Shown here: positions 29,637 through 35,700 of the stretch, one piece after another
Numbering within the stretch: position 1 is the stretch's first letter
Layout of the letters: each line of letters begins with the position of its first letter
Assembly (NCBI RefSeq): GCF_057098645.1
Contig: NZ_CM169472.1
DNA: 64,000 bases
Strand: one strand, 5' to 3'
The notes under the pieces: generated by a model
Databases searched by the model: none
The model's input: only the letters and a program-made list of their open reading frames with translations
What the model was told of the DNA's origin: nothing
Program-made: the position numbers and the translations under genes

Positions 29637-30134
29637 TCACCGCAGCATCGTCATCAGCTCCATGGGAGAACGATGCTGCTTTATCAGATCACGCATCACC
29701 CGCATATGCGGCGCAGAGTAAGAATAAAACGCCTGATAGCCCGCACAAAGCACGCTGTCTGGCGTCTCCTCCCGAGCGTGCGGACACAGCAGATGCCAGT
29801 CGCACGCCTGGCAGCCACGGCGCGGTTGCGGGTTTTCGCTGCCACACAATTTTTGTAATGTGGCGTCAAAAAGCTCAATCGAGATACGACTGATATCTGC
29901 CCGCACCCAACACTCAAACAGGGCAATTAAAAATTTCCCCCACAGCTCTGCTGTCACCGAAGCGGCCGTCATATCGCCCCGGTCATCAAATTCAAGATGG
30001 GGAATAAGCTGTACGGAGCGGATGCCCCGTTGTTTGAAATTGTGATAAAAATCGGCAGGTTGCAGAGCATCCTTGTACTCTACAACCAGTTTATGCCTGT
30101 CCTCTTCAGCATCAATGACCTGACTTCCTGTCAT
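29637..30134 (-). CDS. yidF: YidF (Cys-rich protein; putative sulfatase-maturase-like)
   Basis: 165 aa Cys-rich ORF in the conserved yidFGHIJKL cluster. Confidence 0.8.
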   Translation of the reverse strand: MTGSQVIDAEEDRHKLVVEYKDALQPADFYHNFKQRGIRSVQLIPHLEFDDRGDMTAASVTAELWGKFLIALFECWVRADISRISIELFDATLQKLCGSENPQPRRGCQACDWHLLCPHAREETPDSVLCAGYQAFYSYSAPHMRVMRDLIKQHRSPMELMTMLR

Positions 30135-30493
30135 GCGACTCTCTCAATAAATACGATAAGTTGATGTATATGCGTTACAGCAAACAGTATTGCGAGAGAT
30201 AACACCGCGAGGGAGATCAAAAATTTGTCACGGACTACGTGAAATTGGGAAAAATCGCTATTCGTGACATCCATTAAATTGCGATTACGAGTGTAGTGCC
30301 AGAGGATCAGCGCCACGATGGCGAGGATGCCAATCGAAATCCAGAATAACATGCCCGCCTGGTGCCAGTTGTGTTTGATAGCCAACGCCATCAACGCGCC
30401 GTAGCCCAGCATGGTACGAAACCACGCCAGTGATGTACGCTCCGGCTGCAGCCCTGGGTCGGCAATGCGTCTGGCTTTGCGGCTATCCGGCAT
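30131..30493 (-). CDS. yidG: inner membrane protein YidG (DUF202)
   Basis: 120 aa membrane ORF; overlaps neighbours as in the yidHG pair. Confidence 0.8.
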   Translation of the reverse strand: MPDSRKARRIADPGLQPERTSLAWFRTMLGYGALMALAIKHNWHQAGMLFWISIGILAIVALILWHYTRNRNLMDVTNSDFSQFHVVRDKFLISLAVLSLAILFAVTHIHQLIVFIERVA

Positions 30494-30830
30494 ACAACAC
30501 CAGTCCCATAACGATCACTGCTACGACCATCAATATTAAGCTGATGATTAATAAGCTGTTGGTGTAGGGCAGGTCCTCTTTCAGACGCATCGCTTTTTCA
30601 TTGCGTAACCAGCGCAAGTAGCCATACATCGCTAACCCGCCGGAAAACAGACACAACAACAACGCCAGCAGTTCGCGAATGACGGGCGTGGCGAAATCTG
30701 GCGCAAGTTGATCAAGCCCAACCCCCGCCGCCAGAAATCCTAGTGCAGTACGGATCCACGCCAGAAAAGTACGCTCATTAGCCAGCGAGAAGCGGTAATC
30801 AGGCGCTTCTCCGAGGCGGGAAATTTTCAT
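30483..30830 (-). CDS. yidH: inner membrane protein YidH (DUF202)
   Basis: 115 aa membrane ORF paralogous in architecture to YidG. Confidence 0.8.
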   Translation of the reverse strand: MKISRLGEAPDYRFSLANERTFLAWIRTALGFLAAGVGLDQLAPDFATPVIRELLALLLCLFSGGLAMYGYLRWLRNEKAMRLKEDLPYTNSLLIISLILMVVAVIVMGLVLYAG

Positions 30831-30938
30831 TGTTGCTCCTTTGCAATTTCACTAACGCTCTACCTTTAGCGGTTTTTTTTAAGAATTTCGTCCGCCCGTT
30901 TCCTGATATGCTTTTGCCATCCGCTACAAGGAGGTCAG

Positions 30939-32928: not shown

Positions 32929-34640
32929 AGGCTATCCTTCGCGTCGGGAGTAAAGGTTACGGCTGGGTCGTGACGATGCCGCCAGCTGTCAAAAATCAGG
33001 TAGACAATCACTACGGCGGCAATGAAATAACTGATCATCGCTAACCAGCGCGTACCGTAGCCGCCGAATTCAGCCAGCCCGGCATAGACGCCAATCATCG
33101 CGAACAGGATGCCAATTGACGCGATCTTGACGTTTTTCCACGGTTTCATGTCCACCGCAAACGCATCTTTGAAGGTGAACGGCGTGGCGCGCGGTTTGAT
33201 AAAACCGATCACCAGCATCACGACCACGTTGATGCAGAACGTACAGGCCAGCACATAGAGGAAATGGAAGTCGAACTTCACCAGATAGTTGATGGTGATG
33301 TAGCTGATTATGCCAATCCCCATCGCCACTTTTGCCGCCAGCGCCGGGATGCGCGGGAAGAAAAAGCCCATAATGATGATGGTAACCAGCGGCACGTTGT
33401 AAATGCCGTTGAGCTGTTTCATCCAGCTATACAGCCCCTGCGGCGCGTTGGCGATCCACGGCGCTACCAGCACCGAAACGATAGCGATAAAGAAACCAAA
33501 TTTGCGCCCGACGGTGACCAGCTGCTGCGGCTCGGCATTCTGGTTAATGATGCGACGGTAAATACCCATACTGAATAACGTACTGGCGCTATTCAGAAAG
33601 CCGTTGAAGGTACTGATCACTGCACCAAATAACACCGCGCCGAAGAAACCCACCAGTGGCACTGGCAGAACGTTATTGACCAGCGTCGGGTAGGCCATGT
33701 CGGCTTTCGGTAGATCCTGATACAGATGAAACGCAATCAACCCTGGCAGCACCAGTACCAGCGGGTCGAGCATTTTCAGCACCGCCGTTAACAGCGCCCC
33801 CTTTTGCCCTTCCGCCAGGCTTTTTGACGCCAGCGTGCGTTGCACGATGCCCTGATTTGTACACCAGTAAAAGGTGTTCACCAGAATTAAACCGGTAAAT
33901 GCCGCGCCAATCGGCAAGGGATCGGTCGGGCCACCGACTGAGTTTAATTTCTCGGCGTGAACGGTGGTAATTTGCTCAATGCCCTGCATAAAGCTGCCCT
34001 TGCCCATCGCGATCAAGCCAAATACCGGCACCATCAACCCGCCGATAACCAGCCCAATACCGTTGATGGAGTCCGCCACTGCCATTGCGCGCAGTCCGCC
34101 GATCACCGCATACAAAATTCCCGCCAGACCAAGCAAAATTACCAGTAGCCAGATAGCCGCACCGTGAGAAATCTGTAGCGATTCCCCGACGTGAAACAGG
34201 CTGTTGAGCGCCAACGCGCCGGAGTAGAGAACAATCGGCAGAAAGCAGACGCCGGTGGCAATGAGGAAGCAGAAGTCGATGATAATACGCGTCGTTTTAT
34301 CATAACGTTCCTCCAGAAAATCGGGGATGGTGGCAATGCCGCGCTTCAGATAGCGCGGTAAAAAGATTAGCGCGAGGAAGATCAGCGTCACCGCTGAAGT
34401 CACTTCCCAGCCCATCACCGACATGCCGCTTTTGTAGGCCTGCCCGGAAAGACCAACCAGTTGTTCCGTGGAAAGGTTGGTTAACATTAACGAAGCGGCA
34501 ATAACCGGCGCTTTTAGTGAACGTCCGGCAAGAAAATAGCCTTGTTGCGATCCGGTATCTGTTTTGCGAACCTTCCACCAGGTGATGATCGCCACCAGCA
34601 GCGTAAAACCGACAAAACTCAAGATTTGTAACGAATTCAT
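32925..34640 (-). CDS. yidK: sodium:solute symporter family transporter YidK
   Basis: 571 aa polytopic SSS-family ORF, translationally coupled to yidJ. Confidence 0.9.
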   Translation of the reverse strand: MNSLQILSFVGFTLLVAIITWWKVRKTDTGSQQGYFLAGRSLKAPVIAASLMLTNLSTEQLVGLSGQAYKSGMSVMGWEVTSAVTLIFLALIFLPRYLKRGIATIPDFLEERYDKTTRIIIDFCFLIATGVCFLPIVLYSGALALNSLFHVGESLQISHGAAIWLLVILLGLAGILYAVIGGLRAMAVADSINGIGLVIGGLMVPVFGLIAMGKGSFMQGIEQITTVHAEKLNSVGGPTDPLPIGAAFTGLILVNTFYWCTNQGIVQRTLASKSLAEGQKGALLTAVLKMLDPLVLVLPGLIAFHLYQDLPKADMAYPTLVNNVLPVPLVGFFGAVLFGAVISTFNGFLNSASTLFSMGIYRRIINQNAEPQQLVTVGRKFGFFIAIVSVLVAPWIANAPQGLYSWMKQLNGIYNVPLVTIIIMGFFFPRIPALAAKVAMGIGIISYITINYLVKFDFHFLYVLACTFCINVVVMLVIGFIKPRATPFTFKDAFAVDMKPWKNVKIASIGILFAMIGVYAGLAEFGGYGTRWLAMISYFIAAVVIVYLIFDSWRHRHDPAVTFTPDAKDSL

Positions 34641-34806
34641 CTCATAGCCCTTATTTATGTTTATGTCCCGGACGCATGAATATAGGGAGAGGTAAAATGC
34701 GTCGGGTCAGGCAGTCAGATTCTTAAAATACAAACGTCGTATCCCTGAACGGATTGTTTTCTGTTAAGTTCAGGTTGTGAGCATAATTCGCCGGAGGGAT
34801 ATTAAA

Positions 34807-35700
34807 ATGAATGGAAAATTGCAAACTTCAGATGTAAAAAACGAAACTCCATACAATATTCCTTTATTGATTAACGAAAATGTGATCTCCAGCGGAATTT
34901 CTCTGATCTCGCTCTGGCATACCTACGCCGACGAGCATTACCGGGTGATCTGGCCACGGGACAAGAAGAAACCGCTTATCGCCAACTCATGGGTTGCGGT
35001 GTATACCGTACAAGGATGTGGGAAAATTCTTTTAAAGAATGGCGAACAAATAACTCTGCATGGCAACTGTATTATATTTTTAAAGCCAATGGATATTCAC
35101 TCTTATCACTGTGAAGGTTTAGTCTGGGAACAGTACTGGATGGAATTTACCCCCACCAGTATGATGGATATTCCCGTTGGTCAGCAAAGCGTTATTTATA
35201 ATGGCGAAATTTATAATCAGGAACTCACCGAAGTTGCTGAGTTAATAACTTCACAAGAAGCAATAAAAAATAATCTGGCAGTCGCTTTTCTGACGAAAAT
35301 TATTTATCAGTGGATTTGTCTTATGTACGCAGACGGTAAAAAAGATCCACAACGGCGGCAAATTGAAAAATTAATTGCCACTTTACATGCCAGTCTGCAA
35401 CAACGCTGGAGCGTAGCTGATATGGCTGCCACGATCCCCTGTAGCGAAGCCTGGTTGCGTCGCCTGTTTTTACGCTATACCGGCAAGACGCCGAAAGAAT
35501 ATTACCTCGATGCGCGTCTGGATCTGGCGCTATCGCTATTAAAGCAACAAGGAAACTCGGTTGGCGAAGTCGCTGATACGCTCAACTTCTTCGACTCCTT
35601 TCATTTCAGCAAAGCCTTTAAACATAAATTTGGTTATGCGCCGTCAGCCGTGCTAAAGAATACGGACCAGCACCCAACGGATGCCAGTCCACACAATTAA
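34807..35700 (+). CDS. yidL: AraC-family transcriptional regulator YidL
   Basis: C-terminal AraC-type HTH; start set at [12 protein letters not shown]. Confidence 0.85.

Follow-up and report, generated by a model that had tools for sequence, protein, structure and literature searches.

A probable uptake and desulfation module, and a shortened relative of sulfatase maturases, at the yidF-yidL locus of Escherichia coli

Do the genes from yidF to yidL of Escherichia coli, among them a Cys-type sulfatase, a sodium:solute symporter, a cysteine-rich protein and an AraC-type regulator, make up a complete and self-sufficient locus for the use of a sulfated sugar? The question is taken up here for positions 29,637 to 35,700 of a 64,000-nucleotide stretch of contig NZ_CM169472.1 (RefSeq assembly GCF_057098645.1; hereafter the window, to whose numbering all coordinates refer), and it arises from an initial annotation that called the cluster complete, YidF maturase-like and the whole a sulfated-sugar utilisation locus. 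The interval is a composite of three units of different standing, and the reading that we favour, with a probability of about 0.65, combines an uptake and desulfation module (yidL and yidK-yidJ), a yidH-yidG pair, and a yidF that is the remnant of an anaerobic sulfatase-maturing enzyme (anSME) and does not mature YidJ, which would instead be matured in trans. Since a sulfatase, YidJ, is translationally coupled to an SGLT-type transporter, YidK, beside a divergent AraC-family gene, uptake followed by intracellular desulfation is the best reading of the locus. The sulfated-sugar proposal thereby draws support, by inference, from the sulfatase, the symporter and the regulator, whereas the proposal of a complete, self-sufficient unit with YidF as its maturase does not stand. 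The features of the interval are as follows.

29637-30134, minus strand: yidF, 165 aa, an anSME derivative with two in-frame deletions
30131-30493, minus strand: yidG, a DUF202 membrane protein
30483-30830, minus strand: yidH, a DUF202 membrane protein
30939-31388, plus strand: yidI, 149 aa, no family match
31435-32928, minus strand: yidJ, 497 aa, an S1 formylglycine-dependent sulfatase, predicted to be cytoplasmic
32761-32775, minus strand: codons of C52-T-P-A-R56, the formylglycine motif of YidJ, from translation
32925-34640, minus strand: yidK, 571 aa, an SGLT-type sodium:solute symporter
34641-34806, no strand: intergenic control region between the divergent yidK and yidL
34807-35700 (ATG start), plus strand: yidL, 297 aa, an AraC/XylS-family regulator

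All seven genes are intact, the list of open reading frames (ORFs) agreeing with the RefSeq annotation of identical O145:H28 genomes; yidF, yidJ, yidK and yidL are thus present where they had been placed, and yidG, yidH and yidI, which had not been named, also lie inside the interval. The window is part of an E. coli O145:H28 chromosome. Over all of its 6,064 bp the interval agrees completely (100%) with strains RM12581 and RM13514, among others. Of 5426 complete E. coli genomes, 5421 match it, 5101 of them over at least 80% of its length, and it is E. coli core DNA. The yidK stop and yidJ start overlap by 4 nt (ATGA), the yidG stop and yidF start likewise share an ATGA, and yidH and yidG have 11 nt in common, all of which indicates translational coupling within each of the three gene pairs.

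The sulfatase domain of YidJ (PF00884, 243.9 bits against a cut-off of 25, E = 3e-72) spans residues 4-341, and because it begins at residue 4 it leaves no room for a signal peptide, so that the enzyme is predicted to be cytoplasmic. The reported C-x-P-x-R motif was read directly from the window, positions 32737-32784 of the minus strand translating to SPVCTPARAGLFTGIY, which gives C52-T-P-A-R56, and residues 49-62, which hold this formylglycine motif, being SPVCTPARAGLFTG. Across 26 homologues, with identities as low as 27%, the motif residues C52, P54 and R56 do not vary, and neither do D12, Q14, K100, H102, H194, D284, H285 and K297, to which we assign catalytic or metal roles by analogy with S1 sulfatases. 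Domain, motif and conserved residues together mark YidJ as a predicted bona fide S1 sulfatase. Across Enterobacterales genera its identity is 80-92%, and the ratio of nonsynonymous to synonymous substitution rates (dN/dS) is 0.04-0.05 for yidJ (dN 0.007-0.02) and 0.02-0.05 for yidJ and yidK; such conservation and strong constraint make it probable that YidJ is of importance in the gut or the environment.

The specificity of YidJ is less readily assigned. Its predicted structure (predicted local distance difference test score, pLDDT, 79), a check that the initial annotation had proposed, returned a generic S1 carbohydrate-sulfatase fold in Foldseek (21-25% identity) but gave no basis for naming a substrate. 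The nearest solved relatives by sequence and predicted fold are exo-acting carbohydrate sulfatases at 21-30% identity, including carrageenan 2S, S1_30, N-acetylglucosamine-6S (GlcNAc-6S), N-acetylgalactosamine-6S and L-galactose-6S enzymes, and such values are too low for transfer of specificity. YidJ shares its fold and catalytic residue set with PsS1_NC (6PT4, an exo-2S iota-carrageenan enzyme), Bt3731_S1_30A (9IHK), the S1_11 GlcNAc-6-sulfatase BT4656 (5G2V) and the exo-L-galactose-6-sulfatase BuS1_11 (7LHA); these exo-acting enzymes, however, are secreted or periplasmic and come from polysaccharide-utilisation loci, whereas YidJ is predicted to be cytoplasmic and is accompanied by a monosaccharide-type symporter. 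The best NCBIfam matches, a generic arylsulfatase at 219 bits and choline-sulfatase at 204 bits, each fall under their own cut-off. Databases label the protein 'sulfatase/phosphatase', and a 2025 paper still has 'putative sulfatase/phosphatase'. The view that the substrate had yet to be published agrees with our literature collection, which is incomplete and hence not proof: it held no substrate for YidJ, and its papers with both yidJ and 'sulfatase' came without a characterisation.

More specific clues come from YidK, which matches PF00474 (SSF; 171 bits, E = 5e-50) and whose best matches in the PDB are vSGLT (1.4e-53), human SGLT1 (6e-46) and SGLT2. The best solved relative is thus vSGLT, the Na+/galactose symporter of Vibrio parahaemolyticus (3DH4, 2XQ2), in which galactose is contacted by Q69, E88, N260, K294 and Q428 together with a stacking tyrosine (PMC8037263). 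At about 30% identity, YidK aligns Q60, E79, N255, K289 and Y258 with Q69, E88, N260, K294 and Y263 of vSGLT, and also has the equivalent of the Na2-site Ser364, whereas Lys408 stands in the place of Gln428, Trp in that of Tyr87 and Tyr in that of Phe424; four of the five galactose-contacting residues are therefore kept (five of six with the stacking Y263). The equivalent of Lys408 is lysine in all 55 YidJ-linked orthologues (71-100% identity), and in Marinomonas the same position is arginine in the paralogue adjacent to YidJ and glutamine in the paralogue beside a GH36 alpha-galactosidase. A lysine here would fit an anionic, that is modified, hexose. A growth phenotype of a yidK deletion mutant on galactose has also been reported (PMC5293155). 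Taken together, these observations hint indirectly at a sulfated hexose no larger than a monosaccharide, and the invariant lysine in a galactose-type pocket would narrow the candidates accordingly to sulfated hexoses.

The third member of the module, YidL, has a C-terminal double helix-turn-helix (PF00165 in two stretches, PF12833) and an N-terminal AraC-type ligand-binding domain (PF02311), and resembles the sugar-responsive AraC and RhaS proteins; with PF00884 at 3e-72 and SSF at 5e-50, the domain assignments originally given to the sulfatase, the transporter and the regulator all hold. Its gene (dN/dS 0.04-0.07) is AT-rich, with a GC content of 37-45%, which fits the reported repression of yidL by H-NS and its activation by BglJ-RcsB (PMC3950696). 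The transcription start published for yidL coincides with the GTG at 34777 (PMC3950696), and a GGAGGG Shine-Dalgarno sequence lies 5' of the ATG at 34807; for both reasons a 307-aa YidL starting from that GTG is unlikely.

It is at YidF that the cluster departs from completeness, and the label 'maturase-like' could not be upheld. The protein matches no Pfam family, Radical_SAM (SAM, S-adenosylmethionine) included, has no CxxxCxxC motif, and scores 71.2 bits on the anSME model TIGR03942, far under the cut-off of 349.45 and over positions 160-245 of 363 only. Alignment with the full-length orthologue of Citrobacter werkmanii shows the start to be kept (MTGSQV vs MTGCQV) and two segments to be deleted, both in frame, namely approximately residues 7-152, which comprise the whole radical-SAM core, and approximately residues 244-302. 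In the Clostridium perfringens enzyme (anSMEcpe), after which cluster ligands were assigned with numbering taken from the alignment, auxiliary cluster I is bound by Cys255, 261, 276 and 330 and auxiliary cluster II by Cys317, 320, 326 and 348, and both are reported to be critical for activity (PMC5682303). The equivalents of Cys255, 261 and 276 are lost with the second deletion and that of Cys330 with a further 4-residue gap, so that all four ligand equivalents of auxiliary cluster I are missing from YidF; C108, C111, C117 and C130 correspond to the four ligands of the surface-exposed auxiliary cluster II. Asp277, reportedly proposed as the catalytic base of anSMEcpe, falls in a deleted segment as well. 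No cysteine other than C108, C111 and C130 is invariant across 17 short YidF forms, yet each of these forms has at least four cysteines in a cluster. The AlphaFold model of YidF (pLDDT 76) finds anSMEcpe chains as its only significant fold matches, covering about 28% of that fold (template modelling score 0.28 relative to the target). YidF is accordingly homologous to the C-terminal half of the anSMEs (anSMEcpe, PDB 4K36-4K39; Klebsiella AtsB; E. coli AslB and YdeM), and differs from anSMEcpe in having no radical-SAM barrel, no SAM cluster (Cys15, 19, 22) and no auxiliary cluster I. As judged from these absences, YidF would be incapable of maturing YidJ by radical-SAM chemistry, and with the radical-SAM core and auxiliary cluster I gone, activation of YidJ would have to come in trans.

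YidF is nevertheless under purifying selection, and hence does something other than form formylglycine. The gene is full-length in 5420 of 5426 E. coli genomes and is a coding sequence of the Prokaryotic Genome Annotation Pipeline in 40 of 40 sampled rows; in a comparison of the window with three divergent lineages of Escherichia, which differ from it at 17-19% of nucleotides, dN/dS was 0.09-0.12 in frame against 1.1-2.5 in two out-of-frame controls, with no indels. That yidF might be a decaying pseudogene is ruled out by this ratio of about 0.1, by the lack of indels and by its near-universal presence. Its dN of 0.09 is several-fold above that of its neighbours. Against E. coli strain E69 (survey locus L004), dS is 1.0 for yidF, 0.4-0.5 for yidG, yidH and emrD, and 0.16-0.18 for yidJ and yidK; this contrast between 29637-30830 and 31435-34640 suggests either a recombination boundary near yidI or an unusually diverse yidF segment.

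The history of the cluster was followed in a survey in which one genome per species was scanned for YidJ relatives and their neighbours were located by tblastn, giving 55 loci. The conserved order is yidL and, divergently, yidK-yidJ-yidH-yidG followed by a sixth gene, which in 36 other Enterobacterales species encodes an anSME of about 370 aa with CxxxCxxC near residue 15 and CxxCx5Cx3C near residue 309. Such full-length enzymes occur in Citrobacter werkmanii, braakii, youngae, sedlakii and amalonaticus, in Trabulsiella, Kluyvera, Pluralibacter, Atlantibacter, Pseudocitrobacter and Buttiauxella, and in Rahnella, Limnobaculum, Pantoea and Erwinia; that of C. werkmanii matches the C. perfringens anSME (4K36) over its whole length at 9e-69. 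Gene order and orientation in the C. werkmanii (L008), Kluyvera, Trabulsiella, Atlantibacter and Rahnella clusters are like those in E. coli (identities of 80-92% for YidJ, 71-91% for YidK and 65-90% for YidL), the difference being that these clusters end in a radical-SAM/SPASM anSME of about 370 aa where E. coli has the 165-aa derivative and an inserted yidI. Short forms of 165-176 aa without CxxxCxxC occupy the sixth position in Escherichia, Salmonella arizonae, Klebsiella oxytoca, K. spallanzanii, Superficieibacter and one metagenome-assembled genome. A neighbour-joining tree places them together on long branches, which is compatible with a single origin, although long-branch attraction could yield the same grouping.

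The two DUF202 genes are conserved members of the ancestral operon: yidH-yidG lies between yidJ and the anSME gene in about 48 loci, nearly all of the orthologous ones, and the dN/dS of yidH, about 0.01, is the strongest constraint in the region. An earlier idea drawn from two Citrobacter loci (L002, L003), that yidHGF is unrelated to yidJK, was overturned by the survey, the Citrobacter arrangement being a secondary loss. The yidI gene occurs only in loci of Escherichia, Phytobacter, C. youngae and S. arizonae, and this restriction identifies it as an insertion on the opposite strand that split an ancestral yidKJ-HG-anSME operon. Elsewhere the module has been reduced, yidH-yidG persisting with a short yidF but without yidJKL in some Citrobacter and in K. 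pneumoniae (yidF down to 140 aa), and alone, again without yidJKL, in Enterobacter kobei and Salmonella enterica. The K. pneumoniae ORF (L073:5775-6197) has 140 aa, no Pfam match and 44% identity to E. coli YidF.

Farther afield, Sodalis has yidK-yidJ-anSME without DUF202 genes, and a betaproteobacterium has an SsuA/NMT1-like binding protein, yidJ, an anSME and a SulP sulfate permease in that order, again without DUF202 genes. Marinomonas has LacI regulators and, within one 20-kb region of strain KMM3893, three SSS transporters, two sulfatases, a GH36 alpha-galactosidase and a full-length anSME (L039:690-2009), which has a SEC-C zinc-binding motif at its end and precedes two DUF202 genes. A YidH homologue search, whose best 120 matches were all from close Enterobacteriaceae, is silent on any distant linkage of DUF202 proteins with sulfatases. 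The invariant C-terminal tail of YidF, PHMRVMRDLIKQHRSPMELMxMLR, was considered as an interface with the DUF202 proteins and set aside, because Sodalis, with no DUF202 genes beside its anSME, has a similar tail in that enzyme. Three surveyed loci call for comment. An Enterobacteriaceae yidLKJHG-anSME locus under the name Chryseobacterium sp. 18061 (L017, CACSKA010000004.1) encodes proteins with 85-87% identity to those of E. coli and hardly differs from that of 'Citrobacter sp. 18056' (L020), so that the former assembly is probably mislabelled or contaminated. The anSME ORF of Trabulsiella odontotermitis strain 01 (L040) has 440 aa and no SPASM cysteine motif, and that of Pluralibacter gergoviae (L019) has 327 aa and no CxxxCxxC; a frameshift, an assembly error or independent decay could each account for such damage.

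Full-length maturases are available elsewhere in the genome. E. coli is counted as having two anSMEs only, those of aslB and ydeM, plus a suspected third system (PMC8379841). In the genome analysed, aslB, full length at 411 aa and annotated as an anaerobic sulfatase maturase, lies about 120 kb from the interval. Like yidJ and yidF, the E. coli pairs aslA-aslB and ydeN-ydeM place a sulfatase gene beside an anSME-family gene, but their maturases are full length whereas the neighbour of YidJ is shortened. The AslA and YdeN sulfatases presumably carry export signals, unlike YidJ.

The sequence of events that we propose would begin at the yidL promoter, whose silencing by H-NS others have shown. 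YidL, together with an inducer, would switch on the divergent yidKJ operon when the substrate is present; YidK would import a small anionic, hexose-like (sulfated) sugar together with Na+; and cytoplasmic YidJ would remove the sulfate ester by means of a formylglycine made from Cys52. That formylglycine would be installed in trans, anaerobically by AslB or YdeM or else by a suspected oxygen-dependent system, and not by YidF, while YidH, YidG and YidF would have a separate role, selected on its own. Several points weigh against this account. The connection of YidK, YidJ and YidL with a sulfated compound is one that we infer from the kinds of protein encoded, and YidL presumably controls yidKJ, as the arrangement of the genes would lead one to expect. 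The argument from Lys408 depends on the alignment of two sequences with about 30% identity, and that lysine could be there for a different reason. Neither by ORF list nor by annotation do the cluster genes include a glycosidase, kinase or isomerase, and the lack of a downstream catabolic enzyme weakens the term 'utilisation'. A promoter and terminator scan gave nothing above chance and no convincing sigma-70 sites. Several relatives do without yidJKL, which makes the module dispensable in similar niches, and the strong purifying selection on YidF would also be consistent with non-catalytic help in the maturation of YidJ.

Among the alternatives, the one that survives best, though we consider it unlikely, is that the locus is a cryptic, decaying remnant, silenced by H-NS, with its maturase destroyed and no present function in E. 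coli. The repression and AT-richness of yidL, the truncation of the cognate maturase and the series of losses (from full cluster to short yidF, then to yidHG-yidF without yidJKL, then to yidHG only) are what such decay would leave behind. It is harder to square with dN/dS values of 0.02-0.05 for yidJ and yidK and 0.04-0.07 for yidL, with the invariance of every catalytic residue of YidJ, with the retention of the interval in at least 5101 of 5426 genomes, or with the constraint on yidF itself and the full-length anSMEs at hand in trans.

Only slightly less probable is a role for YidJ outside carbohydrate catabolism, either in the scavenging of sulfur or with a non-sugar ester as its substrate (an aryl or alkyl sulfate, a compound like choline sulfate, or a monoester of phosphate or phosphonate). 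The sub-cut-off arylsulfatase and choline-sulfatase matches, the 'sulfatase/phosphatase' label, the betaproteobacterial orthologue between a binding protein of SsuA/NMT1 type and an anSME with SulP, and the want of a sugar-catabolic gene in the E. coli cluster would all suit such a role. The transporter coupled to YidJ, however, belongs among the SGLT sugar symporters and keeps most of the galactose-binding residues of vSGLT, the solved structures nearest to YidJ are carbohydrate sulfatases, YidL resembles sugar-responsive AraC and RhaS, and in Marinomonas a GH36 alpha-galactosidase and LacI regulators are found at the locus as well.

A far more speculative proposal, to which we give little credence, is that YidF is a domesticated mini-protein and partner of YidH and YidG, forming with them a redox or formylglycine-support module or a handler of released sulfate. 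It builds on the retention of the auxiliary-II site only and on the survival of YidH and YidG in Salmonella, Enterobacter and K. pneumoniae, where the sulfatase genes have been lost; the sulfate-handling variant is suggested because the betaproteobacterial locus, which has no DUF202 genes, has SulP directly after its anSME. If true, a membrane-linked YidF-YidG-YidH module would be a candidate for the suspected third maturation system of E. coli, working without radical-SAM chemistry. Finally, that the cluster is complete and self-contained, with Cys-rich YidF maturing YidJ, is highly improbable: its sulfatase, transporter and regulator are present, and YidF is homologous to the C-terminal part of an anSME, holds the maturase position of related clusters and keeps four clustered cysteines under purifying selection, but by its sequence the maturase is non-functional, having no radical-SAM domain, no CxxxCxxC and no auxiliary-cluster-I ligands where both auxiliary clusters are reported to be critical (PMC5682303), reaching 71 against 349 bits on the family model, and recurring as YidF-like proteins in K. 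pneumoniae and Citrobacter loci that lack yidJ.

The locus is a known one, annotated in every E. coli genome, and the general prediction for it is old, a picture that the present results do not alter. What is added here is the history of the double in-frame deletion in YidF, the selection acting on YidF, the ancestral six-gene operon and the invariant lysine in the YidK pocket, and these additions are useful leads rather than surprises. YidJ is among the few predicted E. coli enzymes still without a substrate, and the loss in E. coli of a native maturase that relatives have kept may explain why YidJ, when studied in E. coli, could be inactive. Likewise, YidF, selected although it is no radical-SAM enzyme, offers a concrete gene with which to approach the maturation of Cys-type sulfatases in E. 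coli.

Some observations concern the surroundings of the locus. A scan with Rfam found no RNA family inside the cluster; outside it, the Hfq-binding antitoxin RNA istR lies at 27641-27770 (minus strand, 145 bits), adjoining tisB and upstream of emrD. On the other side, glvA (6-phospho-alpha-glucosidase, 440 aa) and a phosphotransferase system (PTS) IIBC gene, which together take up 35697-38896 on the minus strand, abut yidL, the 3' ends of glvA and yidL overlapping by 4 nt. The glv genes remain beside the locus in many genera, even where yidJKL has been lost, and the longest ORF of the PTS gene in the window has 625 aa against 538 aa in the RefSeq call.

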